The translations under genes and the position numbers were made by a program. The notes under the pieces were generated by a model. That model had not been told where the DNA came from and did not search any database. It was given only the letters and a program-made list of their open reading frames with translations. This document shows positions 38,544 through 57,200 of a stretch of DNA of 57,200 nt, in pieces. Source of the stretch: a virus (lineage: Duplodnaviria > Caudoviricetes). The stretch spans positions 1-57,200 of IMG/VR virus record IMGVR_UViG_3300046804_002082. The stretch is one strand, 5' to 3'. Every line of letters starts with the position of its first letter. Within the stretch, counting starts at the first letter, position 1.

Positions 38544-38583
38544 TGTTTGAACGATTGCCTATACATCGTGAGGTTCTAGGTTA

Positions 38584-39495: not shown

Positions 39496-39538
39496 TTGGT
39501 TTGGTTAACGATTGCCTATACATCGTGAGGTTATTGGG

Positions 39539-40537: not shown

Positions 40538-40577
40538 ATTGTTAGGCGGTTTCCTTTACACCGCAAGGTTAAGGTTA

Positions 40578-40781: not shown

Positions 40782-40821
40782 AATCTTATGCGGTTGCCTC
40801 TACACCGCAAGGTTAAAATGA

Positions 40822-42491: not shown

Positions 42492-42533
42492 AGTTTTAGT
42501 GGCGGTTGCCTATACACCGCAAGGTTAAAGTGA

Positions 42534-42746: not shown

Positions 42747-42787
42747 AATACTAGTGGCGGTTGCCTATACACCGCAAGGTTAAAAGG

Positions 42788-43106: not shown

Positions 43107-44069
43107 TTATTTGGCGGTCTCTAATATTAAAGCTACCGCCTCTTGTGACTTTTTGCTTGACTGCATAATCAAGTTCTTGTCGTCGTTGATTGCCTTAATC
43201 CACCCGTTAATATAGGCTTGACTATTTTTAAAGTCGTCAACCTTGCAATCAATTCCCGTGATAGCTTCTAGATAAAGCGCACCCAACTCCGCTACTAATT
43301 CCTCCTTTGAGTAATTCTCGCTACCGAAATTTGCCGTCGTGTCTAGTCGGTTAAGGCGTGACTTGTGTCCCGTGCTATGGATAGCCTCGTGAAAGAATAC
43401 CTTGTAATAATCCCCGCTTGACTGCCACTGCTTGTCCGTCTTTTCGGGCATTTGAATATAGTCCCCGCTAGGGCTATAAAACGCTTGTCCTTGCTTGCTA
43501 TGTTTAAGCGTGACTACACTAGACCACCCTTTTAATATAGCCTCCGCGCTAGCTACCGCCTCCAATTCGGTTGCCTCTTCTTCTACTAGATTGGGCGTGT
43601 CGTGAGGTAGGTTCGTTTGACTGATTGACCATACTTTCCACTGCTTCAAGTAGAAAGATTTGCGGGCTATTTTCTTGTCCGCTTCGGGTACTTTTGCTAG
43701 GGTAGGATAGTAGGTAGTTTTCCCGTCCTTGTCCACTGCATAGCTGATTTGCCACATAAAGATATCCGTCCCCTTTTCCCCCTTATTAATTAAGCCCTCA
43801 CATTTTTGGATATGGGCAAACGTGTACCACTTGTTGACCCAATTGTTTTCTAAGGCTATTGCCGAAAGAATAAATTGATTCCAACCTTTGTACGGGCGTC
43901 CATAAGCGGACAACGCTTGAAAGCTACCCGTCACGCCGTCCTTGAAAGGCTTAAACCACTGCAATCCCTTGTCTTTGAGACCCGCTATAACCTTGTCGTT
44001 AATTGAGTCAATGATTTGCGCTTGTGTTAATTTTGGTGCGCTTGCAAATGTTTTTTTAGCTACTGCCAT
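43107..44069 (-). CDS. ardC: ArdC-family antirestriction protein (ssDNA-binding domain plus zincin-like metallopeptidase domain)
   Basis: W.KPF, RPYKGWN, WYTF, KGEKG, AFYSP..D.I.MP, HEAIHSTGH..RLNR, YSKEELVAELGA, AYI.GW. Start MAVAK 11 nt after the hairpin. Confidence 0.92.
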   Translation of the reverse strand: MAVAKKTFASAPKLTQAQIIDSINDKVIAGLKDKGLQWFKPFKDGVTGSFQALSAYGRPYKGWNQFILSAIALENNWVNKWYTFAHIQKCEGLINKGEKGTDIFMWQISYAVDKDGKTTYYPTLAKVPEADKKIARKSFYLKQWKVWSISQTNLPHDTPNLVEEEATELEAVASAEAILKGWSSVVTLKHSKQGQAFYSPSGDYIQMPEKTDKQWQSSGDYYKVFFHEAIHSTGHKSRLNRLDTTANFGSENYSKEELVAELGALYLEAITGIDCKVDDFKNSQAYINGWIKAINDDKNLIMQSSKKSQEAVALILETAK

Positions 44070-44111
44070 AAGATTAATAAGCGGTTGACCTACCACCGCA
44101 AGGCTTAAAGA

Positions 44112-44405
44112 TTATTTGATTGTTTTTAATTCTACCGCGTTGGGCAACGTAGAAAGATATTCAACGTAGCCAACCTCATTTTCCGTAACGAAAGCCCAAT
44201 CGTCATTAATAAATGTTTCTAAGGCGCGACCCATAAAAAATGAAGGCTCGAAATCGTCAAGCGTGTAGGGTGATTTCGCTTCACCCGTCATAGATATATA
44301 ATAATTATTAAGCGCGTCAAGCATTTGCTCCTTGTTGTCAAAGCTAAAATGTAAAGGATGTCCGTCCCCTTTCATTCCTAAAATGTTAAAAATTGCGTAG
44401 TACAT
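44112..44405 (-). CDS. Early hypothetical protein
   Basis: ATG 7 nt after the hairpin. Confidence 0.7.
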   Translation of the reverse strand: MYYAIFNILGMKGDGHPLHFSFDNKEQMLDALNNYYISMTGEAKSPYTLDDFEPSFFMGRALETFINDDWAFVTENEVGYVEYLSTLPNAVELKTIK

Positions 44406-44443
44406 AACAAAGGCGGTTGACCAATTACCGCAAGGCTTTAAGA

Positions 44444-44521
44444 TTAAGATAATAAACTAGCAACGATAAGGGCTAGGGCAACCCGTGCCACTAGACCCAA
44501 CTGAAATTTTAAGTCCTCCAT
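44444..44521 (-). CDS. 25-aa hydrophobic peptide
   Basis: Hand-translated MEDLKFQLGLVARVALALIVASLLS*, fills the gap before the next hairpin. Confidence 0.5.
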   Translation of the reverse strand: MEDLKFQLGLVARVALALIVASLLS

Positions 44522-44522
44522 A

Positions 44523-44702
44523 TTACTTACCCTCCTCCACTGAAATACAACCACCTGCCGAAAAGATAGACCCAAACACTAAGAAAGCGAAGCGACCGCC
44601 TACGGGCGCATCTGCTACCCAAGCCAAGTCCCACGCCACAAAGGCGATAAGAAAGTAAAACACTACAAAAATCAAAGCGATAACTTTTACATAGATATTC
44701 AT
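44523..44702 (-). CDS. Early two-TM membrane protein
   Basis: Start MNIYV 8 nt after the hairpin. Two hydrophobic helices. Confidence 0.65.
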   Translation of the reverse strand: MNIYVKVIALIFVVFYFLIAFVAWDLAWVADAPVGGRFAFLVFGSIFSAGGCISVEEGK

Positions 44703-44741
44703 AATAATTCGCGGTTGACCTATCCACCGCAAGGCTAATGA

Positions 44742-45029
44742 TTATAATAATTCAGTTAATTTGTGCATATCAATTTCGCATTGAACGAATTCGTAAAGCG
44801 ACTGATAAGCTAGTTCGGTTATATTTGTGCAACCCCCGAAATCCGTTACTCCTAATGCCATAACAATAGCGAAGCAATCAGAATAATAGATACAAGCCGT
44901 GTCAATTTCTTGACTGATATAGTCTTGAATTTCGTCGTAATCAGTCATAAGATTAGTCTTTGACCCAATCAAGTCAATAATTTCTTTTTCTAGTGTTTCC
45001 ACAAAAAGAAAGGGATTAAATTTTTCCAT
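44742..45029 (-). CDS. First early gene, acidic protein
   Basis: Start MEKFN 8 nt after a class C hairpin. EID..CIYY.D...LAY..L motif. Confidence 0.7.
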   Translation of the reverse strand: MEKFNPFLFVETLEKEIIDLIGSKTNLMTDYDEIQDYISQEIDTACIYYSDCFAIVMALGVTDFGGCTNITELAYQSLYEFVQCEIDMHKLTELL

Positions 45030-45037
45030 AGGAAAAG

Positions 45038-45063
45038 TTCGGTTAAAGCGACAACCGAAAAGC
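45038..45063 (-). repeat. Class C start-associated hairpin, copy 2
   Basis: + strand TTCGGTT-AAAGCGAC-AACCGAA-AAGC. Confidence 0.85.
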
Positions 45064-45077
45064 AAAGTTGAAAAAAT

Positions 45078-45093
45078 TGTTTCACGTGGAACA
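45078..45093. promoter_or_regulatory. parS: parS (ParB/Spo0J-binding) site
   Basis: TGTTTCACGTGGAACA, a 15/16 match to the bacterial chromosomal parS palindrome TGTTTCACGTGAAACA. Confidence 0.85.
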
Positions 45094-45103
45094 TACCACG
45101 TTG

Positions 45104-45171
45104 CGACTAGATAGGGAAACGAACCCTACACTCACGGGACTAAGCCTAAGTGAGGCGACCAACGTCTAGCC
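45104..45171 (-). ncRNA. tRNA-like RNA lacking a canonical D-arm
   Basis: GGCTAGA/TCTAGTC 7-bp acceptor-like stem, TAGGG-TTCGTTT-CCCTA T-arm and CTCAC/GTGAG middle arm. Confidence 0.6.
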
Positions 45172-45546
45172 GTTAAGCGTAAACTATCACTAGCGGTAGC
45201 GGTTCAAAAGGGCTAAACCCAATTTATGTACATCCGTTTCATTGCACCCGTTGACCCTACGGGGGTGGGAATTTGATAACTCTGTTTTTTCAGAAAAGCC
45301 GATAAGTCAAAGAACTATTTAAGCATACTTTCGTCCGTTCGGTCGGGGCTATTGACAAACCGCGTTTAGCGCGGTACAAGTACTTATGTTTAACGTCTAG
45401 CCCTCCCCTAGTGAGCCTATCCTTTGCACCACTATTGCAGTGGCTTCGCATCTCCCCCTAATGAGCCAATTCGGGCGTTCGGGGTATATAGCACGCGCCT
45501 CGTTCGGCGGGCTTGTCTCGTGAGCCGTTGCTCCCGTTTGACATTA

Positions 45547-45554
45547 CAAACCTA
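45547..45554 (-). promoter_or_regulatory. Probable major early promoter (-7 element)
   Basis: TAGGTTTG on the - strand, with TTGACA about 17 nt upstream, at the edge of the GC-rich leader. Confidence 0.6.
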
Positions 45555-45677
45555 CACAATTTTATATACCCTTGTCAAGTTTTCTTTGAAAAATGCAATG
45601 AATTAGTTCAAATTAGTTGAAAGTTCTTTAAATAATACAATTAGCATAGTAATAACCCTTTCGCCCTATACTGAATT

Positions 45678-45765
45678 CGCGCTACACGCACGATACGCGA
45701 CACGCACGCTACGCGCAACACGCGACACGTACACGCATCACACGCGCGACGCACACGCGCTACAC
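45678..45765. repeat. ACGC/ACAC-rich low-complexity degenerate repeat tract
   Basis: cgcgctacacgcacgatacgcgacacgcacgctacgcgcaacacgcgacacg..., mostly alternating purine-pyrimidine, in the divergent intergenic region. Confidence 0.8.
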
Positions 45766-46061
45766 TATGAGCAATTTTAGACCCCCGATTTTGCGTCTAA
45801 TGAACTTTCTTTACTAGGGCGGATAGATTGGACATTTTAGGGGGTAAAGTCGCTTAAATCAAAGATATGACCCCTTAAATCGAATGCTTTGTTTTGTACA
45901 ATTTTTGTCTAGGAAAAATCCTATATGAATTGTAGGGTCGTTGGGGGGTTGATTTTTGGGGGTTATTGTTGGGCGGGTAGACCCTCTTGCCGACCTATAC
46001 GCCTAGCAATTTATTTTTCTATCCTGACTTGTGGGGGTTGTTGTTTCTTGACGGGGTCAAT

Positions 46062-46150
46062 CAGGATAACTCAGGACAGAATTGTTAGGAGGGTATTGTA
46101 TAGGGGTTATTCGTCGGTAATATATTGCCGAACAGGATAACTCAGGACAG
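46062..46150 (+). repeat. 18-bp direct repeat pair
   Basis: CAGGATAACTCAGGACAG at 46062-46079 and 46133-46150. Confidence 0.85.
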
Positions 46151-46301
46151 GGAATTTTGGAATTTTGATTATGAAAAGAGACCCCACCCCGTTCGGAATT
46201 TGCGGTTTGTCATTGGTTTGGCGACCCGTCCCGTTTTATATATAACCTTCTGAAAACACCTACGCGCTACATAAAAAATTGCAACATTGGCGACTAATCA
46301 T

Positions 46302-46309
46302 TACCTTTG
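46302..46309 (+). promoter_or_regulatory. Bacteroidota sigma-A -7 element
   Basis: TACCTTTG before the GroES-like gene. Confidence 0.65.
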
Positions 46310-46335
46310 GACACATAAACCAAACGATATATAAA

Positions 46336-46977
46336 ATGTTACAATACAACATCAGGCAAGCACCTGCAAATACGGTCATTGTAGAGGTTGGTAAAACGCT
46401 AGAAGATACAGTTACTTTTGGCAGTATGACGCTACACATAGACCCTGAATTTAACCCTACACATCACGCAAGAATCTTTGGACGAGTAGTCGCTGTACCA
46501 GACGGTAGAACGTGGGACGAAGAGAACAATACAATTAACGACGAGGTTGAGGTAGGCGACCTTATATACTTCCATTACTTAGTAACTAGCAATGAAGCAA
46601 ACTGTATCTACGGCAACTATTATAAAGTACCTTATTATTGGATTTTTTGTAGCGTTAGGAACGGTAATATATTACCTGTTGGAGGCTGGACTTTATGCGA
46701 GCCGACGGTTGAGCAGGAATATAATACAGTTGAAGTTGAAGGTAAGAAAATGGAAGCGACTTTTAGTGCATCAGGATTAGTGACATCTGTGTTTAAAACA
46801 CCATCTGTTGACGTAGCAAAGTTATCATATATTGGTAAGCCAGTAGGTGACAATTATGAGTGCGAAGCAAAGGTAGGTGCAACAGTAGTTTTAGCTAAAA
46901 ACTCCAACTTTCTTAACAAAATTGAAGGTAAAGACTACTATACTGTTAAGCAACAATACATCTTAGGAGTTAAATAA
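46336..46977 (+). CDS. Tandem GroES-like co-chaperonin
   Basis: Two GroES-like halves: G.VVAVP...VEVGD.IYF and P.GG..L.EP...SASGLV...VG..V...IEGKDYYTVK...IL. Confidence 0.7.
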   Translation: MLQYNIRQAPANTVIVEVGKTLEDTVTFGSMTLHIDPEFNPTHHARIFGRVVAVPDGRTWDEENNTINDEVEVGDLIYFHYLVTSNEANCIYGNYYKVPYYWIFCSVRNGNILPVGGWTLCEPTVEQEYNTVEVEGKKMEATFSASGLVTSVFKTPSVDVAKLSYIGKPVGDNYECEAKVGATVVLAKNSNFLNKIEGKDYYTVKQQYILGVK

Positions 46978-46998
46978 AGCACTTTTTGTACGAAAATC

Positions 46999-47074
46999 CA
47001 ACGACCGTTCAACGACCGTTCAACGACCGTTCAACAAAGTAAAGAAAAGAAAAGTAAAGTAAAGTAAATAAAAG
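46999..47074 (+). repeat. 3 x 11-bp tandem repeat plus A-rich tract, candidate replication origin
   Basis: CAACGACCGTT x3, then CAACAAAGTAAAGAAAAGAAAAGTAAAGTAAAG. Homologous to 35909-35963 inside the initiator gene. Confidence 0.8.
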
Positions 47075-47124
47075 GCACTAACGCGCCAGCTGATTGATAT
47101 GTTTTTTGTTAACCCTAAAAGACC

Positions 47125-47132
47125 TACTTTTG
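47125..47132 (+). promoter_or_regulatory. Bacteroidota sigma-A -7 element
   Basis: TACTTTTG with an upstream TTTG, before the terminase genes. Confidence 0.6.
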
Positions 47133-47187
47133 CGAAAGCAATGTTGCTCAAGTTCCGCCGCCGCGCCGCCGCCAAACAATAAAAATT

Positions 47188-47748
47188 ATGGCATCATTTA
47201 CCGATGAAGAGTTCAGCAAGATATTAATCCCAGTTGGACAAAAGAATTTAGAGAAAGACCCTGTTGTAAATCAAATCTTTGGAAAGATTAGCAAGGATGA
47301 AATTCCGCTAATCGAGTACGTTGCATTGCTTTATGATATGAAGTCCCCTATGAGATTGAAGATTCCTGACATTGTTGAAAGAAAAGAGGAGTGTGCAGAG
47401 ATGGCTGGGTTAAAAGGAGACAACACTCATATCTTTGATTTAAGCGACGATAAATTGCTTGGGTATATCAATGTATATCTCAAGCACCAATCGTCGAAAA
47501 TATGGGCTATTCTCGCAGCCAACGAAGAAGTTCTATGGCAATACCAGCAAGAACTTTTAACTCCTATTGTAAATTTCAAGAATGACAAAGATAAATTGCA
47601 AGCACTTGAGATTAAATCAAAGTTGATGGGCGAGTGTGATGCAATTATTAAACGAATTGAGGCTTACGAAGAAAAGTTGTTTGGCGACAATCAAACTAAG
47701 AAAGATAAGATTCTTAACTATACTCCTGAATCAATAGCTAATGTCTAA
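47188..47748 (+). CDS. Probable terminase small subunit
   Basis: Helical 186-aa ORF directly upstream of the large terminase. Called on position only. Confidence 0.55.
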   Translation: MASFTDEEFSKILIPVGQKNLEKDPVVNQIFGKISKDEIPLIEYVALLYDMKSPMRLKIPDIVERKEECAEMAGLKGDNTHIFDLSDDKLLGYINVYLKHQSSKIWAILAANEEVLWQYQQELLTPIVNFKNDKDKLQALEIKSKLMGECDAIIKRIEAYEEKLFGDNQTKKDKILNYTPESIANV

Positions 47749-47834
47749 CAACTACTTTACCTCCACTATATGTTACGTGGTATTGAAAATACACTATATG
47801 CTTCGTCGGTCAGTTTGCTTTAAACGCACTTTTT

Positions 47835-49835
47835 ATGTATAGAACTCACAAGAATTGTACGACTAAAGAAATTAACGGGATAGTCGTTAACATTCCGCCA
47901 GCAGGAATGGTTTACAATGTAATTACAAACGAGTGGGAGAAACGCGATATTGTCAAGCGTTCAGCCCGCAAAGAAAACCAATATTGGGAAAGACCTTTAC
48001 CGCCAACAGATTATGACATTAAACGAAAAAAAGAAATTGCTGCGCAAAAAACCAATTCGGAATACTACAACCCAGAACTACAAGCCTACCGCAATCAAGA
48101 GTGGGATAGGCGACTTAACGGTTACTGGTTTTACAATAATGGTGTGCCTACTTACGTTACTGGCTTACACTATTTTTACTTGGTACACTGGAAGATTGAT
48201 GTAGGCTATCCTCACTTCCGTATGACGGATGTTGACTTTTTTTACTTTTTGGAATACGTAGTTCAAGACCCACGCGCTTTGGGAATGATTGAAGTGACTA
48301 AGCGTCGTCAGGGTAAGACTATGCGTGCAGGTGCATTTTTATTCGAACTGACGTCCAGAAGTAAAAATAAGAACGCTGGTATCCAATCAAAGACTTTTGA
48401 GGATGCTAAGGACAACGTATTTGCAAAGGGAATTGTAATGCCGTTTAAGTACCTACCCGATTTCTTTGTTCCAATTTACGATACTGAAAAGGGTATGACC
48501 CCCAAAGGGGAGCTTCGTTTTTTTAAGACAAACAAACGCGGTAAGGATGAGGAGCTGTTCGACAAAAAGATTGAACTAGAATCTGGTATTACGTTTAAAT
48601 CGGCGGACAAGTTTGCGTATGACGGTACTAAGCTGCACAGATATCTAGGAGACGAGGCTGGTAAAACAAAGGGTGTTGACGTTTATGATAGACATCAAGT
48701 CGTTCAGTTCTGTCTGTTTGAAGAAGAAAAGATTGTCGGAAAGGCACTTTACACAACTACTGTCGAGGAAATGGAAGATGGTGGACAAGCTTTCCAAAAG
48801 TTATGGAACGCATCTGATATTAAAGATAGAGATGCTAATGGAAGAACAAAGTCAGGTCTGTACCAGTATTTTATGCCCGCGTATAAGACTTTATTTTACG
48901 ACAAGTATGGCTTTCCAGATGAAGTTAAAGGCAAAGAATATTTTATGAACGCTCGTGCTGGACTTGAGAGCGACCCACGTGCGTTAGCTTCATATATCCG
49001 TAAGAACCCTTTTACAATTGAGGAGGCGTTCTTTTCAGAAGCAGAATCTTGTTTGTTTGATGCAATGAAATTAAATCGACAAATAGAATCTATTTCGTGG
49101 ATGGATGAAAAAGATTTGTATATTCGCGGCGAATTTATGTGGGAGAATAGTGTGCGAGACAGCAAGGTTTTATTTAAAAAAACGTCCAACGGTAAGTTCT
49201 TGGTTCACAAGAAAGTAAATCCAATGGACACTAGTTACTACAATCAGGTCAAGGAATACGGTACAAAGAAAGCTCCTATTGAGGCAATGAAGTACGTAAT
49301 TGGTTGTGACCCATTTGACCACAACAGTACAGTCTCTAATCAGCGTTCTGATGGAGCAGCTTATGTCTATAAGACTTTTGACGCCGTAAACGAATTAAGC
49401 GAAACCTTTTTAGTCGAATATATTAATCGTCCCGACAAAGCGGAAATCTTTTACGAGGATATGATTAAGTTGTGCCACTTCTTTGGATGTACAATATTAC
49501 CAGAGGATAACAAGGTTGGTTTGATTAAATACTTCGAACACAGGGGCTACGAGCGGTTCTTGTTTAAAAATGGACATAAGTACGGTGTGTCTGCTACAGT
49601 TAAAACACACCAGCAAATAGCTGAATTAATCGAAACTTACGTTGAAGAAAATATTGCAAAATTAAATTTTAAAAATCTTTTGTTAGATTGGTTGAAGTTT
49701 GATATAAATAAAACCACTAAATTTGATGCGACAATGGCAAGTGGCTACACGTTAATGTTAGCCAACAGTTCGCGATTCGCTCAAAAACAAGAAGTAAAAA
49801 AGAAGTTATACGACGTAAAGGAGATATTCCTGTAA
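47835..49835 (+). CDS. terL: Terminase large subunit
   Basis: TKRRQGKT Walker A, LGDEAGK Walker B, IGCDP nuclease motif, KFDATMA. Confidence 0.92.
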   Translation: MYRTHKNCTTKEINGIVVNIPPAGMVYNVITNEWEKRDIVKRSARKENQYWERPLPPTDYDIKRKKEIAAQKTNSEYYNPELQAYRNQEWDRRLNGYWFYNNGVPTYVTGLHYFYLVHWKIDVGYPHFRMTDVDFFYFLEYVVQDPRALGMIEVTKRRQGKTMRAGAFLFELTSRSKNKNAGIQSKTFEDAKDNVFAKGIVMPFKYLPDFFVPIYDTEKGMTPKGELRFFKTNKRGKDEELFDKKIELESGITFKSADKFAYDGTKLHRYLGDEAGKTKGVDVYDRHQVVQFCLFEEEKIVGKALYTTTVEEMEDGGQAFQKLWNASDIKDRDANGRTKSGLYQYFMPAYKTLFYDKYGFPDEVKGKEYFMNARAGLESDPRALASYIRKNPFTIEEAFFSEAESCLFDAMKLNRQIESISWMDEKDLYIRGEFMWENSVRDSKVLFKKTSNGKFLVHKKVNPMDTSYYNQVKEYGTKKAPIEAMKYVIGCDPFDHNSTVSNQRSDGAAYVYKTFDAVNELSETFLVEYINRPDKAEIFYEDMIKLCHFFGCTILPEDNKVGLIKYFEHRGYERFLFKNGHKYGVSATVKTHQQIAELIETYVEENIAKLNFKNLLLDWLKFDINKTTKFDATMASGYTLMLANSSRFAQKQEVKKKLYDVKEIFL

Positions 49836-49839
49836 GATT

Positions 49840-52137
49840 ATGGCAGAAAACGCAAACACGATTAACAATTTCCCTTCGCACACAATTGATGCGAGCCAGA
49901 AGGATGAAAAATGGATTGCCCAGTATTTGAAAGCAGCTTGGACTGACTTCTCTGCGTACTATCCGAATCAGATGTACAACGGACGTGATAAGTACCACGA
50001 GATTAAGTTGTATATGTATGGCAAGCAATCAGTTAGCCGCTACAAGAAATTGTTACAGCCGCGTGAAGTTGCCAACGAAGACCAGTCTTGGATTAACATT
50101 AACTGGGACATCTTGCCTATCATTCCTAAGTTTCGTCGTATTGCTTTATCAACTTTATTCAAAACCGATTACGATATTTCTGTTGACGCTATTGACCCAG
50201 TAGCTCAAGACGATAAAGATAAGTTTTATGCAGATAATGCCGCTAAATTAATCTTAAAGCAGGAGTTTGAGAAACAGGGATTAGACCCAGAATTAGTTCC
50301 AACACCAGAGGTTAAAGCAGATTCGTTAGAAGAGCTTGATATGTATATGAACTATTCATACAAGCACCGAATGGCGATTGAGTTAGAGATGGCGTTGCAA
50401 CTTATAATGAATCTAAATAAGTTTGAAAATGAGCGTTTAAAAGTCATTGAGGACTTACACGATTGGGGAATTGGAGGTTATAAAGAATATTTTGATGCAC
50501 ACAATAACATTAAAGTTCGCCGCGTAAATCCAATGAATATGGTAATGTCTTATACGACAGACCCTAACTTCAAGGATATCCAATACGTTGGAGAGGTTAT
50601 TGAAATGACTATCTCTGACTTAAAGCAAATGGCTGGCGATAAGTTTACCGAAGAGCAATATGAGATTATTGCTGAAAAGTATTCTAACAAATACAACAAT
50701 ACATCGACACTACGTGACCTTAATAGTAATTACAACGGTATTTACGACGGATTTAGAATCAAGGTATTAGACTTAGAGTTCTACTCTTACAACAGTATGA
50801 TTCTTGAAGAGCGAGTTAACTCAAAGGGGAATGTAGTCGTAGGTCGTGCAGGAAAGATTAAAAACTCCCGTAAGGATAAGAAATACTCAAAGACAGATTA
50901 CAAAGTAGTTTACAAGGGTAAGTGGGTTATTGGTTCTGAGTTTTTCTTTGATTGCGGTTTGGCTACAAATATGAAGCGTGCAAAGTCTTCTTTAACAGAT
51001 ACTTCGTTAAGCTATCATATTTCAGCACCTAATATGTACCAGATGTCAACTTACTCTTTGGGAGACCAAATGAAGAGTATTGCTGACCAGATTCAGTTGG
51101 CTTGGTACAAATTACAGAATGTTATGTTACGTGCTAAGCCACGTGGTATAATGATTGAAATTGGCTCGTTAGAAGGAGTACCTCTTGGAAAAGCAGGTCG
51201 TGCGTTGAAGCCATCAGAAATTTTAGATTTATATAATCAAACAGGTACTCTTGTTTATCGTAGATTAGATGATGAAGGACAAGCAAGCAATTATAAACCT
51301 ATTGAGGAGCTTGAAAATGGTATTGGTAATGAAGCTGTTCAGTATTTCAATATCATTAAACAAAATATTGATTTACTTAGGGACATTTTAGGATTTAATG
51401 AGATTACAGATGGTTCTACACCAGACCCTCGTACATTAAACGGTGTTGCTAAGTACGCAAGTGAATCAACTAATAACTCCCTTGATTTTATTAAGAGAGC
51501 TGAGAGAGATTTGCTTGAAAGATTATGCTATGACCTAACATTGCGTATTCAAGATACTGCGCTTAATGGTTCATTATCAGGGTATGTTAGAGCGCTAGGA
51601 AGCGAAACAGTTCAATTCTTTAAGTTAGACCCTAATGTGTCTGCATACGAATGTGGGCTTATGGTTCGTCAAAAGCCAAACGAATTTGAAAGAGAGAAGC
51701 TTGCTCGTCGTATTGAACAAGCAATCCAATCTAACCAGATTACTTTGGCGGATGCAATGACAGTAGAAAACCTTGAGAATCTTAAATACGCTGAGGTTTT
51801 ACTTGCTATGCGCATTAAAAAGAATCAAGACGAGGCTCAGAAGCGTGCAATGCAGCAGCAAGAAATGAATGGTCAGATTCAAATGCAATCTGCTCAAGCT
51901 GCGGAACAGGCTAAGCAACAAACTATTCAGATTGAAGCTCAGGCAAAACTTATGGTAATCCAGAAAGAAAAAGAACTTGAGTTACAGGTTGAATTAGCTA
52001 AGATGCAGCAGTTAGCTCAGATTGAGGCGATGAAGGTTGAGGGCAAGATTAATATGAGTAAAATTGAAGCAAATAGCCGAGAATACATCGCTCAAATTAA
52101 AAAGGGCGAAAAAGATTTGCCAAAAACTGAAAAGTAA
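49840..52137 (+). CDS. Portal protein
   Basis: 765 aa after terL. LPIIPKF and G.NE..DG..P motifs with a Gln-rich coiled-coil barrel. Confidence 0.88.
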   Translation: MAENANTINNFPSHTIDASQKDEKWIAQYLKAAWTDFSAYYPNQMYNGRDKYHEIKLYMYGKQSVSRYKKLLQPREVANEDQSWININWDILPIIPKFRRIALSTLFKTDYDISVDAIDPVAQDDKDKFYADNAAKLILKQEFEKQGLDPELVPTPEVKADSLEELDMYMNYSYKHRMAIELEMALQLIMNLNKFENERLKVIEDLHDWGIGGYKEYFDAHNNIKVRRVNPMNMVMSYTTDPNFKDIQYVGEVIEMTISDLKQMAGDKFTEEQYEIIAEKYSNKYNNTSTLRDLNSNYNGIYDGFRIKVLDLEFYSYNSMILEERVNSKGNVVVGRAGKIKNSRKDKKYSKTDYKVVYKGKWVIGSEFFFDCGLATNMKRAKSSLTDTSLSYHISAPNMYQMSTYSLGDQMKSIADQIQLAWYKLQNVMLRAKPRGIMIEIGSLEGVPLGKAGRALKPSEILDLYNQTGTLVYRRLDDEGQASNYKPIEELENGIGNEAVQYFNIIKQNIDLLRDILGFNEITDGSTPDPRTLNGVAKYASESTNNSLDFIKRAERDLLERLCYDLTLRIQDTALNGSLSGYVRALGSETVQFFKLDPNVSAYECGLMVRQKPNEFEREKLARRIEQAIQSNQITLADAMTVENLENLKYAEVLLAMRIKKNQDEAQKRAMQQQEMNGQIQMQSAQAAEQAKQQTIQIEAQAKLMVIQKEKELELQVELAKMQQLAQIEAMKVEGKINMSKIEANSREYIAQIKKGEKDLPKTEK

Positions 52138-52141
52138 TTAA

Positions 52142-52149
52142 TACATTTG
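52142..52149 (+). promoter_or_regulatory. Bacteroidota sigma-A -7 element
   Basis: TACATTTG with an upstream TTTG, before the scaffold and capsid genes. Confidence 0.7.
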
Positions 52150-52169
52150 TACCGATAACCAAACAATAA

Positions 52170-53243
52170 ATGGAAGAGAACGTAATAAACCTAGACGAAT
52201 TATTGCCTAGTGAAACACAACAAGAGTCAACAGTGCGGGACATTACCCCAGCTTCAGAACAAGCTCCTAGCGAAGATGTTAGCGGTGAAACTGAAGGAAC
52301 TGATGATTCTATTGAAGATGAGTTTCCAAAAGAGGAAACTCAATTAGATGAGGGTATTACAGAAGGTTCGGCAGAACAGGTAGAAGAAAAAGTTGATAGC
52401 ATCCCAGAGGTGGAAGCTGAAGCTGAGACTCCTACTGAAACTCCTGCTGAGCCATCTGAATATAAATTCAAGGACGATTTCATCAAGAAAGCGGTAGAGT
52501 ACTACGAGACGTATGGTACTTTGCAACCGTATCTGGAAGCGACTTCGGTTGATTATGACGCTGTCTCAGACTTAGATTTAGTTAAATCTCAGTTTGAAAA
52601 AGACAATGCAGATTTAAGCGAAAGAGCAAGAACCAGATTGTTTGAAAAAGAACTTGAGAAATATAATCTTGATTCGTATGATGAAGATGACGTTGAGGTA
52701 GGTAAAGCCTTGTTAATGCGAGATGCCAACAAGTTACGTACTAAACTAAAGGAGGAGCAGCAAAAGTTCATCCAAAACATCCAGCCTGCGGGACAAGAAC
52801 AAGTACAACAAGTATCTCCAGAGGAAATTGAAGCGCAACAAGCGGAAACGCGTAAAGCAATTCAATCTGGAGTAAGTAGTGTAATTAAAGACAACTTAAT
52901 TAAGTTGGAAGCTAATGGCGAAGGCATTAATTATCAAGTAGCCGATGCTAACAAAGTCGTTGATTACGCTATTGATTCAAGTAAATTTCTATCAACTTTC
53001 GCCAAAGACGGAAGTGTAGATTGGAACAAGTGGACACAAGTAGTTGCATTCGCAGAGAATCCAACTCAGTTTATAAGTGAACTAATTAAACACGGAAAAT
53101 CTTTGGGTCGTAAGGCGATGGAGGCAGAATTAAAAAATGTCACTCCACCTACGAACTCAAAAGAGGTTATTGAAAACAGCGACTTTACTAGTCCATTTGA
53201 TAACCCTGTTGACTTTTTAAAGGGAATGACTGTAAGAAAGTAA
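52170..53243 (+). CDS. Capsid scaffolding-like protein
   Basis: Very acidic, disordered N-terminus. Lies between portal and capsid genes. Confidence 0.7.
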   Translation: MEENVINLDELLPSETQQESTVRDITPASEQAPSEDVSGETEGTDDSIEDEFPKEETQLDEGITEGSAEQVEEKVDSIPEVEAEAETPTETPAEPSEYKFKDDFIKKAVEYYETYGTLQPYLEATSVDYDAVSDLDLVKSQFEKDNADLSERARTRLFEKELEKYNLDSYDEDDVEVGKALLMRDANKLRTKLKEEQQKFIQNIQPAGQEQVQQVSPEEIEAQQAETRKAIQSGVSSVIKDNLIKLEANGEGINYQVADANKVVDYAIDSSKFLSTFAKDGSVDWNKWTQVVAFAENPTQFISELIKHGKSLGRKAMEAELKNVTPPTNSKEVIENSDFTSPFDNPVDFLKGMTVRK

Positions 53244-53270
53244 GTTATTCACATTTAAATTTTTATTACA

Positions 53271-54602
53271 ATGGCTATTGGAGCAGGTAATATCGACCGT
53301 ACCTTTTTGTCTACGGTATCGTTTACAAACACGTTAGAGCAACGTGAAATTTTAAAGGACGTTCTTGACATCTATGATGAAGAGGCGTCAATGTTGGACA
53401 TCTTAGATTGGACAGGTAAAGCTAAGGCTACTGCTCAAACTGAGTATTTTACAGTACAAAACAACTTCTTGTATGCAACTGCTACAGTTAAGACCCCAGG
53501 GACTTCTGCGGGTTCTGCTGGTGCTTCTGTTGACATCACTTGCGTTGGAGCTACTTCTGTTAAGCCAGTAGTTGGTGAGTTAATCTTGTTTGCTAACGGT
53601 GTTGTAGGTTATGTATCTGCTGTTTCTGCTGCTACTGACTTTGTTATCACTGTTAAGCCAGTTAACTCTGCTGATGCTATCCCTGCTGCTACAACAGGTT
53701 CTAAGTTGTCATTTATGTCTAACGCATACGCGGAAGGAACTGGTTCTAACCAAATGCGTAAGTCTGATTTGATTAAGCGTTCTAACAAGTTGCAAATCTT
53801 CAAGACTAAGACTTCTATCACTGATATCGCTTACGGTTCTAAAATCGAAGTTGAATTCAAAGGTAAGCCTTACTACTTCTTGAAGCAGCAGCACGATGCA
53901 TATTTGAAGCACCGTATGGACATCTTGTATTCAATCTTGTTCGGACGTGAGTCAGCAGGTTTGACAGATGCTTCAGGTAACGCTATCAATACAACTCGCG
54001 GTTTGCGTGACACTATCGTTAATGCTGGTGGTATTTCATCTTCAGTTGCAACTGGTGGCACTTTGTTATTGTCTGATATCGCTGCATTGTCTCGTTTGAT
54101 GGATGCTAACCGTTGCCCAGCAGAATATCAATTGTGGGCTGGTGCTGACTTTGATAACGCTTTTGATACTCAAATCACTGGTGCTACTCAATTCATCAAC
54201 GGAGCTGTAAACTACGCTTCTTACGGTGGTAAGAAAGAGGTTGCTATCGCATTAGGCGTTCAATCTTTAGCTGCTTACGGACGTACTTTCCACAAGAAGC
54301 GTCTTAACGCATTATCTCACCCACAAGTAACTTCAGTAGGTGGTACAACTACTTTCACAAAAGAGGCGTACTTAGTTCCTGCTGGAAAGATTAAGGTTGA
54401 GCAAGGCGGTGGTCAAGTAGACCGTATGATGGTTCGTTACTTAGAGATGCCAGAAGGCTTGAACTCTCGTTTCCGCGAGAAGATGCTTGGTGGTTTAGCT
54501 CCAGTTCCAACTAGCGATACTGATACTTTAGATATCGTTTACACTTCAATCGAAGGTTTGGAAACTGTAGGTAACGAGCATTTCGTTAAATACTCTATCT
54601 AA
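53271..54602 (+). CDS. Major capsid protein
   Basis: 443 aa with strongly biased codon usage. AYAEGT, N..QIFK and TTRGL motifs. Followed by a terminator. Confidence 0.88.
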   Translation: MAIGAGNIDRTFLSTVSFTNTLEQREILKDVLDIYDEEASMLDILDWTGKAKATAQTEYFTVQNNFLYATATVKTPGTSAGSAGASVDITCVGATSVKPVVGELILFANGVVGYVSAVSAATDFVITVKPVNSADAIPAATTGSKLSFMSNAYAEGTGSNQMRKSDLIKRSNKLQIFKTKTSITDIAYGSKIEVEFKGKPYYFLKQQHDAYLKHRMDILYSILFGRESAGLTDASGNAINTTRGLRDTIVNAGGISSSVATGGTLLLSDIAALSRLMDANRCPAEYQLWAGADFDNAFDTQITGATQFINGAVNYASYGGKKEVAIALGVQSLAAYGRTFHKKRLNALSHPQVTSVGGTTTFTKEAYLVPAGKIKVEQGGGQVDRMMVRYLEMPEGLNSRFREKMLGGLAPVPTSDTDTLDIVYTSIEGLETVGNEHFVKYSI

Positions 54603-54622
54603 TAGGTTTGAGATTAAAAATT

Positions 54623-54650
54623 GGGGAGGAGAAATTCTCCCCTTTTTTTT
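54623..54650 (+). terminator. Intrinsic terminator
   Basis: GGGGAGGA-GAAA-TTCTCCCC followed by T8. Confidence 0.9.
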
Positions 54651-54667
54651 GTTTAAAAAATAATATA

Positions 54668-54675
54668 TACATTTG
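54668..54675 (+). promoter_or_regulatory. Bacteroidota sigma-A -7 element
   Basis: TACATTTG after the capsid terminator. Confidence 0.7.
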
Positions 54676-54697
54676 CGTAACCAAACAATAAAAAGAA

Positions 54698-55513
54698 ATG
54701 AAAGCATCTGAATACAATCAGTTGTCTCCAGAAATGGAGAGAAAGTTAGCCTTGAATGAAAGAGCTACTTATCGAGTTAATAATGTGCGTCCTGACCCAG
54801 ATAACTATGGGAAATTCTTGATGCCATCTGCATTGCAAATCCCTTCAACAGACGTTATTTACGACAAAGGCAAGAAAGACTTTGTTACAATTGCTGCTAT
54901 TGAGCGTGTTGACAATGACGGTAATCCAGTATTTTTGAACATTGTTTTTACAGCAGCTAATTTTGGATATTTATTCCTTGATGGCAAAAATCCTGTTCAT
55001 CAGAAAATTTACCAATTCTTAGAGTTATGCAATTACAATGAAAGCAATCCTAATAAAAACGGGGAGGCTGAAATTCATTTTCATCGCGTAGATACTAAGA
55101 AAGAGGCAATCCAAGAACGCTCTATGCGTAAGTTAATTGTTCGTGCAATGAACCTTGCTTTAGAGATGGACGACAAAAAAGCAAAAGAAGTTGCAATGGC
55201 ACTTGGTATTGATGCAGAATCAATCGACGAAATTCGCAATGAATTAGAAGACTACGCAGGCGAGAATCCTAGCGAGTTTTTAGAAGTTGCAGAACGCGCT
55301 ACCATTGAAGTTGAATCTTTGTTGAAAGAAGCAATTAAAAAGGGTATTATTGTAAACAATTCTAATGCACAAACATTTGAGTGGGCGGAAACTCATAAAG
55401 AGATTTACAAGTACAAGAAATCTCCTAATAAGAACTACGTCAAAGAACTAGCCGATTACCTAGAAGAAAACAATCCAGATGAGCTAAATGCCATCAAGAC
55501 CCGCTTGGGGTAA
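54698..55513 (+). CDS. Conserved protein following the capsid gene
   Basis: 271 aa with its own promoter and terminator. Position resembles the conserved post-capsid gene of crAss-like phages. Confidence 0.7.
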   Translation: MKASEYNQLSPEMERKLALNERATYRVNNVRPDPDNYGKFLMPSALQIPSTDVIYDKGKKDFVTIAAIERVDNDGNPVFLNIVFTAANFGYLFLDGKNPVHQKIYQFLELCNYNESNPNKNGEAEIHFHRVDTKKEAIQERSMRKLIVRAMNLALEMDDKKAKEVAMALGIDAESIDEIRNELEDYAGENPSEFLEVAERATIEVESLLKEAIKKGIIVNNSNAQTFEWAETHKEIYKYKKSPNKNYVKELADYLEENNPDELNAIKTRLG

Positions 55514-55551
55514 ATCCGACAACAGGATAGATTGTTTGGTTTCGGTTGATT

Positions 55552-55587
55552 AGAAGGGGTCGCATTTTGTGACCTCTTTCTTTTTTT
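55552..55587 (+). terminator. Intrinsic terminator
   Basis: AGAAGGGGTCGC/GTGACCTCTTTC stem followed by a T-tract. Confidence 0.85.
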
Positions 55588-55601
55588 CTGATAAATTATT
55601 G

Positions 55602-55609
55602 TATCTTTG
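55602..55609 (+). promoter_or_regulatory. Bacteroidota sigma-A -7 element
   Basis: TATCTTTG after a terminator, before the tail fibre gene. Confidence 0.7.
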
Positions 55610-55632
55610 AACAAACATAGCATAGCTTAGAA

Positions 55633-57200
55633 ATGTCGGCAAATTTTAGTGTTCAATTTAGAATCAACGAAAAGACTCAGACACGAGTTATTCGTTTAAC
55701 AGATACATCTTCAGGATTTACATTAGCAAAAGGTAACTTTTCAGTAACCTTTCCTGATGGCTCTACTCGAATCAAAACTGAGTGGACTAGCCCTGATATT
55801 ACATCTCCTGCTGCATATATTGATATTTTAGCGGTAACGGATAATAATAACAATGTAATTACGGGTTCATATAAAATTGACTTTATTGCCTTAGATGCGG
55901 CTACAACATCTTATTCAGCATCAAAAGAATTTGATTTTAATTGGGTTAAGCCGACAAACTTAATTACGGATTTATCAGATGTAATTACTCCACAAGTTCA
56001 ATTTAAAGATAATGCTTCCTATTCACCAATAGGTAGTTTTACAGGGACTGTATCAAGAGTATTTTCTGTACCATTCCCAACAACATCTGAAGCTTCTGCT
56101 CAACCTGCAACATCAACGACTGGAAATACATTAACTCCTGTATATTCTGGAAATTATTATGAAGGTGTTTATAATATATCAAATGATGTTTCTTGCAATT
56201 ATACTCATACTACTAATAGTTGGCTGACAATTAATTATGTAGAGCTGTTCACTAAATCTATTGCAATTAAAAAGTGTCCAAATCAATTGGGACTCATTGC
56301 AAAAATGAACACATATAGAGCTGTAATTGAAGCTTATAAAGAAAAGAACGATACGCAATTTAACATACTTAGCGAGCAATATGATTTAGCGATTGCTTTG
56401 TATTCTCATATTATTGCTAGATATGAAACTTCTACGCAAGATGGCTCAGAAGGGCAACTTAGGGAGTTGCTTTCTATTTTAGAGCCATATACTGGTTCTT
56501 ATACGTATCAATCTACAAAGATGTTGCCATTTGAGTTAGCGGTAACAACTAGCAACTCATTTACAATTTCTGATGGCACAAATACGGATTCGGTACAGCT
56601 TGGTGGCACATTAACATTTTCAGGAAACAGTAATGCTTTAAAGCCATCTATAACTGATAATCAAATCAATTTTACTCCTGTATTTGGTACAGATGCAAAT
56701 ACTTTTGCACAAGGTAATGATTCAAGATTCCATAATGCAGTAACCATTGCTACCGCTAACGGTCTTTCTTTGGCTTCTCAGGCACTTTCTCTTGCCACTG
56801 CGACATCTAGTTCATCTGGAGCTATGAGCGCAGCTGATAAGGCAAAATTGGATGGTATTGCTGCTGGTGCAAATGTTGGTACGGTAACTAGTATTGGGAT
56901 TTCAGTTCCTTCTGCATTTACAGTAAGTAATTCTCCTATTACTAGTAGTGGTGTAATTAATATTTCTGCTACGGGTAATCCATTGCAATATATTACAGGT
57001 GCTGGCGCGTTAGCAACATTAAATACTGGTGCAGTTCCTGAGAACGGTAATCTTTATTTTACAAATACAAGAGCAAGAGCTGCTATTTCAGTATCTGGTA
57101 GTTTATCATATAATTCTACGACAGGAGTTATTTCATATACAACTCCTAGTGAAACAGACCCAATATTTACAGCTTCTCCGTCTTATGGTATTACTAACAC
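55633..57200 (+). CDS. Tail fibre/structural protein, 3'-truncated by the window end
   Basis: Hand-translated open frame MSANFSVQF... containing GAMSAADKAKLDGIA, GTVTSI, NLYFTNTRARAAIS and ETDPIFTASP fibre motifs. Confidence 0.8.
   Translation, partial: MSANFSVQFRINEKTQTRVIRLTDTSSGFTLAKGNFSVTFPDGSTRIKTEWTSPDITSPAAYIDILAVTDNNNNVITGSYKIDFIALDAATTSYSASKEFDFNWVKPTNLITDLSDVITPQVQFKDNASYSPIGSFTGTVSRVFSVPFPTTSEASAQPATSTTGNTLTPVYSGNYYEGVYNISNDVSCNYTHTTNSWLTINYVELFTKSIAIKKCPNQLGLIAKMNTYRAVIEAYKEKNDTQFNILSEQYDLAIALYSHIIARYETSTQDGSEGQLRELLSILEPYTGSYTYQSTKMLPFELAVTTSNSFTISDGTNTDSVQLGGTLTFSGNSNALKPSITDNQINFTPVFGTDANTFAQGNDSRFHNAVTIATANGLSLASQALSLATATSSSSGAMSAADKAKLDGIAAGANVGTVTSIGISVPSAFTVSNSPITSSGVINISATGNPLQYITGAGALATLNTGAVPENGNLYFTNTRARAAISVSGSLSYNSTTGVISYTTPSETDPIFTASPSYGITN

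Follow-up and report, generated by a model that had tools for sequence, protein, structure and literature searches.

A structured early leader RNA with a candidate tRNA-like minihelix in a podophage from an uncultured freshwater group

The window analyzed here is the whole 57,200-nt stretch of DNA in IMG/VR record IMGVR_UViG_3300046804_002082, a linear sequence of 57.2 kb that is about 90% complete. Structural genes occupy the plus strand (1-27036 and 46279-57200) and include those for a GroES-like protein, the large terminase, the portal, an SU10-type capsid protein and a protein of 3358 aa. The minus strand between 27037 and 45029 carries about 48 small early or replication genes, including those for DnaB, an O-like initiator, a PD-(D/E)XK nuclease and an ArdC-like anti-restriction protein. 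The terminase is 33% identical to its counterparts in podophages of Flavobacterium and Cellulophaga, which points to a host among the Bacteroidota, and the record represents a podophage from an uncultured freshwater group that most likely infects a member of this phylum. The two gene blocks diverge from a 1.25-kb gap, and the leader described here lies within this gap on the minus strand, directed towards the early genes (Table 1).

Other parts of the gap are also conserved or compositionally unusual. A block at 45783-45888 is 78-89% identical across all relatives and contains its own TAnnTTTG box (45860-45867, minus strand) flanked by two direct 8-nt repeats; none of its 20 predicted pairs covaried among 11 sequences (-1.9 kcal/mol), and it looks like a DNA-level promoter/operator block. 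Between this control block and the leader promoter lies a low-complexity tract of alternating purines and pyrimidines (45666-45765, GC 0.60), and similar GC-rich bins are present in three related loci (L004, L008 and L011). A second conserved block (46152-46278, 73-78% identity in relatives) directly precedes the GroES-like gene and adjoins G-rich direct repeats at 45940-46111, and this area is presumably the rightward promoter region.

The initial annotation had described the interval 45064-45545 as a GC-rich leader without a credible open reading frame, lying behind a probable promoter, and each of these observations held up. The GC content of the interval is 48.8% compared to 36.3% for the window, and the promoter position coincides exactly with a minus-strand TAnnTTTG box. 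Together with the TTG upstream of it, this box fits the Bacteroidota sigma-A consensus (-7/-33), namely TAnnTTTG at -7 and TTG about 19-21 nt further upstream, and the transcription start is predicted at approximately 45539-45541. A TAnnTTTG box was found at the corresponding place in 10 of 16 related sense-oriented intergenic regions, and many genes of the window carry one 20-30 nt ahead of their start. However, a lone match is weak evidence because the motif occurs 91 times in the window versus 66.7 +/- 8.8 times in mononucleotide shuffles. The longest sense ORF in 45101-45547 encodes 53 aa (table 11) and the longest ORFs of six homologous leaders only 21-34 aa, and reading through TGA, TAG or TAA opened no consistent frame in the seven homologous leaders.

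Table 1. Predicted features of the leader and its immediate surroundings, listed in the direction of transcription.
Feature	Coordinates	Strand	Evidence
-33-like TTG, 21 nt upstream of the -7 box	45576..45578	-	read from sequence
-7 box, TAnnTTTG type	45547..45554	-	invariant in 6/6 aligned leaders
5' domain of leader RNA	45337..45541	-	fold z -0.97; 45337-45534 in RNA-library contigs
5-bp hairpin and conserved single-stranded block to 45416	45429..45443	-	kept in 7/7 leaders; 2/5 pairs compensated
Y-shaped module with 6-9-bp closing stem	45346..45403	-	z -1.87; common only to window and L030
(Nearly) invariant block	45307..45329	-	all 7 leaders; second half can form a small hairpin
Hairpin with conserved 7-9-nt loop, possible pseudoknot with C-run just upstream	45245..45269	-	8-sequence alignment
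tRNA-like minihelix at leader 3' end	45104..45171	-	model score 23.6 bits, E 0.004
6-bp trailer hairpin right behind minihelix	45084..45101	-	z -1.96
Hairpin immediately ahead of first early gene, loose member of hairpin array	45038..45059	-	z -4.31; 0/200 shuffles as good
First early gene, 95 aa from ATG at 45029	44742..45029	-	without family match

The three hairpins and two internal repeats that had been listed for the interval were all found, the hairpins at 45245-45269, 45359-45375 and 45429-45443, an exact 11-nt repeat at 45161 and 45392, and a 10-nt repeat in three copies (45408, 45458 and 45517). An exact 11-mer pair is expected by chance about 0.3 times in 1.5 kb by simple arithmetic. 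The fold of the whole leader was ordinary on either strand (z = -1.19, with 10 of 100 shuffles as good) and sub-domain values ranged from +0.4 to -2.0, so that thermodynamic stability was rejected as evidence for structure; the one exception was the hairpin ahead of the first early gene (z about -4.3). Thus, the description of the leader as structured stands by comparison with relatives but not on folding energy. By themselves the hairpins and repeats do not exceed chance, and the case for a structured RNA at this locus is carried by the relatives and by the tRNA-like element predicted at 45104-45171.

Relatives were found through the neighboring ArdC-like and GroES-like proteins. Most share just two other intergenic blocks with the window, and their leaders are mosaic; six leaders can be aligned with that of the window along the whole length (those of L030, L016, L017 and L034, plus those of the metagenome contigs L050 and L096), giving a family of seven RNAs of 372-447 nt. 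All seven have the same start region, keep hairpin 45429-45443 and the block that follows it, and contain the 45307-45329 block and the minihelix; in five of the seven a trailer hairpin stands directly behind the minihelix. Alignment therefore shows a family with a conserved predicted frame and a mosaic middle of swappable modules. The window leader aligns well with L030 only (72% over 339 nt) and has a private insertion of 78 alignment columns (about 75 nt) with an internal duplication, which is the second repeat of the initial annotation. For the five leaders that are not of the window type, RNAalifold predicted 97 pairs, 21 of them compensated, and 93.4% of cells paired compared to at most 43% when the structure was slid along the alignment, figures that overstate the case because the consensus was derived from the same sequences as were counted and two of these are nearly identical.

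The first bases of the 45307-45329 block pair with 45426-45428 in the consensus fold, and the block shows no variation and so provides no covariation evidence. The Y-shaped module includes hairpin 45359-45375 as well as the 11-nt repeat's upstream copy (45392-45402), which forms the 5' strand of the module; the stem of the inner hairpin is changed on both sides in L030, and a variant in an RNA library disrupts two pairs of the module. The other repeat copy, at 45161-45171, comprises the 5' acceptor strand of the minihelix and the first bases of its linker, and the repeat may be a relic of a tandem minihelix like that seen in L044. Long-range acceptor pairing through the 45392-45402 copy was rejected, the pairing not being conserved in L030. 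In the motif at 45245-45269, an identical loop is carried on four different stems among eight sequences (fold z +0.39). A single compensated pair between this loop and the C-run upstream, seen in L004 and L008 only, makes a pseudoknot possible. The counterpart of this hairpin in five relatives ends 2-3 nt ahead of the minihelix. The trailer hairpin is kept behind the minihelix in the window, L016, L017, L050 and L096, and L016 and L017 also have one behind their second minihelix. A T-run at 45071-45076 is terminator-like, but it begins 8 nt past the trailer stem.

The minihelix was not among the features of the initial annotation and was exposed by aligning the leader with its relatives, in which an invariant T-arm lies near the 3' end. 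Its acceptor stem joins 45165-45171 with 45105-45111 in 7 bp, one of them G-U, and its T-arm (45112-45128) has a 5-bp T-stem and a 7-nt loop, giving the shape of an acceptor stem stacked on a T-stem. The linker contains a D-loop-like GG, an extra 5-bp arm with a 14-nt loop (45131-45154) is common only to the window and L030, and the discriminator at 45104 is followed by CAA. The fold centroid corresponds exactly to acceptor plus T-arm. One departure was found in the T-loop, where the window has U at 45119 in place of the A58 expected, the sole case among 20 aligned copies.

Compensatory changes support the minihelix as an RNA structure. Among 14 copies from relatives, 89.1% of cells pair and 9 of the 12 pairs show compensatory changes, whereas slid controls pair at no more than 51.5%; on four of five measures, 0 of 500 shuffles reached the observed values. 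Comparison of the window with L030 gave 33 of 34 cells paired and four pairs changed on both sides, although 38 of 500 shuffles equaled this result, which involves two sequences only. Covariation among homologues, on which the initial annotation had staked its proposal, is present, and these data show selection on the minihelix as a predicted RNA of the minus strand. Taken with the RNA-library contigs over the 5' half of the leader, the covarying homologues also support the earlier proposal of a long non-coding RNA that starts at the named promoter and heads the leftward, early operon.

A covariance model built from the 14 copies was used to search 329,649 nt, comprising the window and 31 loci. 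All 24 matches (E <= 1) were on the early-sense strand, where each either ends a leader or stands between two early genes. The match in the window was weak because its extra arm is foreign to the model. Copies of the first kind end the leader right before the first early gene and were found in 16 contigs of the model search, four of which score E values between 0.04 and 0.8, as well as in L050 and L096. A second kind (type B) lies between early genes of relatives and is absent from the window. GG was present in the linker of every one of the 20 aligned copies. An anticodon arm is not conserved, and most copies, at 45-50 nt, have only a linker in its place. Type A copies have C after the discriminator, and CCA is encoded there in 6 of the 18 leader-end copies, the remainder having CTA or CAA. 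No minihelix was matched in 11 of 25 GroES-linked loci, and in the two such loci with measured gaps (L019 and L033) these are shorter and rich in AT.

In relatives, a second minihelix or a hammerhead occupies the slots that separate early genes, and the simplest reading that covers both is that RNA is cut at these slots. The hammerhead candidate, found in L050 and L096 (156-207, minus strand), matched Hammerhead_1 with 28 bits compared to a gathering score of 34 (E 0.0017), and its core is intact. Its place is exactly between the stop of early gene 1 and the start of early gene 2; no hammerhead was found in the window. L044 has two minihelices in tandem at the end of its leader and a third after a 51-aa ORF (655-702, 786-832 and 1029-1074). 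The suggestion of the initial annotation that the leader is a precursor of several small RNAs is plausible, given that the 3' minihelix is a signal of the RNase P/Z type and that L044 has two in tandem.

Outside this group of relatives the leader was not detected in the collections searched. Searching with blastn gave no match among cultured phages for the intergenic region of the window and the leaders of two relatives, the leader was absent from 50,697 GenBank phage records, and a cultured Flavobacterium phage, searched over its first 32 kb, gave no matches to the minihelix model. A motif scan of metagenomes returned 106 stretches, of which inspection by eye retained only about nine as relatives (L050, L096, L051, L068, L143, L082, L147, L141 and possibly L137), the rest being unrelated families that share the 15 specified bases. 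The comparison with Rfam that the initial annotation had proposed matched no family in the window at gathering scores, and nothing credible at permissive thresholds (E <= 10 in 44800-46400 and E <= 5 in the loci of seven relatives). No matches were obtained to put-like, 6S, RNase P RNA, GOLLD, ROOL, OLE or Bacteroidota motifs, and ARAGORN found no tRNA or tmRNA gene in the window and 25 loci. An ordinary tRNA was rejected on the basis of ARAGORN and Rfam (RF00005), neither of which gave a match; the window element is without a D-stem and has a 14-nt loop on its extra arm.

Public sequencing runs hint weakly at an abundant RNA that corresponds to the leader's 5' half and begins only a few bases from the predicted start, although DNA carry-over in the libraries is possible. 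Contigs of these runs, as opposed to reads, were compared with 44000-46400 (2.4 kb). Two metatranscriptome runs from different studies gave one contig each, X19 a contig of 197 nt (45337-45534, 11 differences) and X20 a contig of 180 nt (45346-45517, 5 differences and 8 loose letters); the contig of X18 is the same as that of X19 and is not independent. The contigs are 94-97% identical to the window and include the insertion region, and they stop near 45340, not at the minihelix. They are short, shallow (depth 3-4) and without strand or ends, such that the uncovered parts of 44000-46400 are uninformative, and a DNA run crosses both ends of the part covered by RNA.

We propose, with slightly better than even confidence, that the leader is a promoter-proximal structured non-coding RNA of about 440 nt on the minus strand and that RNase P/Z separates it from the early mRNA by cutting at its tRNA mimic. 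A transcript running leftward from 45541 would head the early operon and would offer the acceptor stem, T-arm stack and elbow of its minihelix to host RNase P and RNase Z or to exonucleases. RNase P would cut 5' of the minihelix, between 45172 and 45171, and RNase Z or an exonuclease would create an end after 45104. Three products are expected, namely a leader RNA that is structured and stable, a small RNA resembling tRNA and an early mRNA with a defined 5' end. Cutting 5' of 45171 and after 45104 is proposed because the minihelix retains parts that are read by RNase P/Z and because slots in relatives hold a minihelix or a hammerhead. We infer that RNase P, RNase Z and the CCA-adding enzyme would read the parts that have been kept, namely the acceptor stem, the T-arm stack, the elbow formed by GG and T-loop, and the C after the discriminator. 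A 7-bp acceptor stem is a major determinant for RNase P according to one report (PMC4201824).

Several other readings of the locus were weighed against processing at the minihelix. There is a small chance that the minihelix, or else the leader in its entirety, is made first in infection and mimics tRNA in trans, serving as a decoy or sponge for host enzymes or defense nucleases that recognize the acceptor/T-arm half or the elbow. Synthesis from the first early promoter, a position that suits the decoy idea of the initial annotation, would favor such a role, as would the elbow features retained in every aligned copy, the CCA encoded in some and the presence of an ArdC-like anti-restriction protein among the neighboring early genes. 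However, the lack of a conserved anticodon arm, in place of which most copies have only a linker, the punctuation-like placement of type B copies between genes, and the fact that no defense-related partner was identified argue against it. A cis-acting role, in which the leader works as a processive antiterminator or attenuator on RNA polymerase or on read-through into the early genes and past the hairpin array, appears improbable. The leader does lie directly behind the early promoter, and a terminator-like hairpin and T-run follow the minihelix (45071-45101), so that read-through could be regulated, but the central part of the leader varies as a mosaic from relative to relative, unlike a polymerase-binding RNA, and no Rfam family was matched. 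The array of short hairpins likewise gives no support to the antitermination or decoy function that had been linked to it: its members lack T-runs, no Rfam antiterminator was matched, and duplex energies between the leader and 13 array hairpins showed no excess complementarity (z -1.4 to +1.0, from 40 mononucleotide shuffles with the array as sole target). This array, which is probably the one meant in the initial annotation, comprises about 12 copies on the minus strand of the window between 38544 and 45059, 10-15 nt ahead of early-gene starts (e.g. 38544-38583, 39496-39538, 40538-40577, 40782-40821, 42492-42533, 42747-42787, 44081-44105, 44413-44446 and 44711-44736). Each has a 5-bp stem that covaries between copies and a conserved 9-nt loop with no T-run behind it, and it could be a protein-binding or processing signal.

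The remaining readings concern the state or the nature of the element itself. That the window holds a decaying or weakened member of a functional family, disabled by its T-loop change and its insertion of about 75 nt, has only a slim chance of being correct. The U at position 58, the low model score and an insertion with internal duplication seen nowhere else would agree with decay, but the acceptor stem is a perfect 7 bp, four pairs are compensated relative to L030, and the RNA-library contigs span the insertion region. A large, repeat-bearing intergenic region between divergent operons might also be a replication origin, a packaging site or an attachment site holding the 3' part of a host tRNA gene, pieces of T-arm and acceptor being frequent in the attachment sites of phages. 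Such a DNA-level role is very unlikely because of the covariation, which involves both acceptor strands, and because G-U pairs occur on one strand only. In addition, no integrase was found among the 74 ORFs scanned, every model match lies on the sense strand, and the sequence-conserved control block that does not covary is located elsewhere, at 45783-45888. A very divergent tmRNA, or an RNA that is otherwise aminoacylated, seems the least credible possibility despite a length of about 400 nt, pseudoknot-like hairpins, a 3' tRNA-like domain and Rfam tmRNA models that touch the T-arm, where they match just 17 nt. A tmRNA was rejected on topology, the 5' acceptor strand lying 10-45 nt before the T-arm and not at the RNA's 5' end, and on position 3:70, which is G-U in none of the 14 copies (C-G in 11, A-U in two and U-A in one) and is C-G in the window. 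No conserved tag frame is present, as illustrated by L034, which has a stop two codons ahead of the shared stop, ARAGORN was negative for the window and the 25 loci, and no SmpB gene was found among the 74 ORFs.

Processing of the leader at its tRNA-like end, the reading preferred here, could have consequences beyond this phage. Phage early leaders usually go unannotated, and this one is a conserved RNA gene of an uncultured freshwater phage group that is absent from Rfam; its tRNA-like end points to a specific mechanism of processing that can be put to the test. Considered with the second minihelices and the hammerhead in corresponding slots of relatives, it suggests that the early polycistronic RNA is cut at defined marks, by host tRNA enzymes or by self-cleaving RNA. 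If general, this arrangement would change the annotation of phage early operons and add natural minimal substrates of RNase P/Z. A more far-reaching and doubtful proposal is that the family is a new class of large structured phage RNA whose business end is a natural mimic of the top half of tRNA, released early to engage the host tRNA machinery as a decoy or regulator, and that tRNA-like minihelices, hammerheads and hairpins can replace one another as punctuation marks of early operons across many unrelated phages. Candidates for the machinery engaged may include RNase P, the CCA-adding enzyme, EF-Tu-independent readers of the elbow and tRNA-directed defense nucleases. In a literature search of partial coverage, neither a leader of this kind nor tRNA-like minihelices from the early operons of phages were found to be described.

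The minihelix resembles laboratory constructs in the stacking of its 7-bp acceptor stem upon a 5-bp T-stem that closes a 7-nt T-loop, and in the C or CCA that often follows the discriminator; in contrast to these it is natural, has a GG linker able to close the elbow and is embedded in a leader. The C4 antisense RNA of P1/P7 and the CI RNA of P4 are phage regulatory RNAs excised from the leader of their own target operon, one end being produced by RNase P. The leader differs from them in having no Rfam match and, for the 13 array hairpins compared, no complementarity above shuffles, in being six times longer and in the phylum of the host. The GOLLD and ROOL RNAs are large structured RNAs of phages and prophages, of unknown function and often located beside tRNAs; the leader matches neither in Rfam, is shorter and has a mosaic middle. 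Among the references cited by PMC4919922, the C4 precursor is named as an RNase P substrate.

YrlA RNA shares T-arm and D-loop mimicry with the leader. According to PMC4201824, however, YrlA lies beside a Ro60/TROVE gene and has an acceptor-like stem closed by a loop, one member being cut by RNase P and receiving CCA, whereas in the leader the topology is tRNA-like, the acceptor end is open and no TROVE (Ro60) protein was found among 74 ORFs, leading us to reject a Y RNA. A parallel in arrangement is offered by the eukaryotic tRNA-like structures of MALAT1 and MEN-beta (mascRNA and menRNA) and the t-elements of plant mitochondria, where a tRNA-like structure sits within a longer transcript and tRNA enzymes make the end of an upstream RNA and the start of a downstream one; for the leader, cleavage would follow the same logic. 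Two reports describe cuts by RNase P and RNase Z at the MALAT1 structure (PMC4919922) and RNase P and RNase Z cut sites at t-elements (PMC1920247). Several relatives of the leader have a hairpin or pseudoknot 2-3 nt before the minihelix, so that cutting there would leave a structured 3' end. The Rfam mascRNA model scored 21.9 bits (gathering 42.5) on the minihelix of one relative and gave nothing on the window. Unlike the phage RNAs, the MALAT1, MEN-beta and t-element structures are eukaryotic nuclear or organellar, and most phage copies are without an equivalent of the anticodon arm. In sum, the leader is neither a tmRNA nor a Y RNA, a C4-like antisense role towards the hairpin array finds no support, and the leader probably belongs with tRNA-like processing elements and structured phage leaders.
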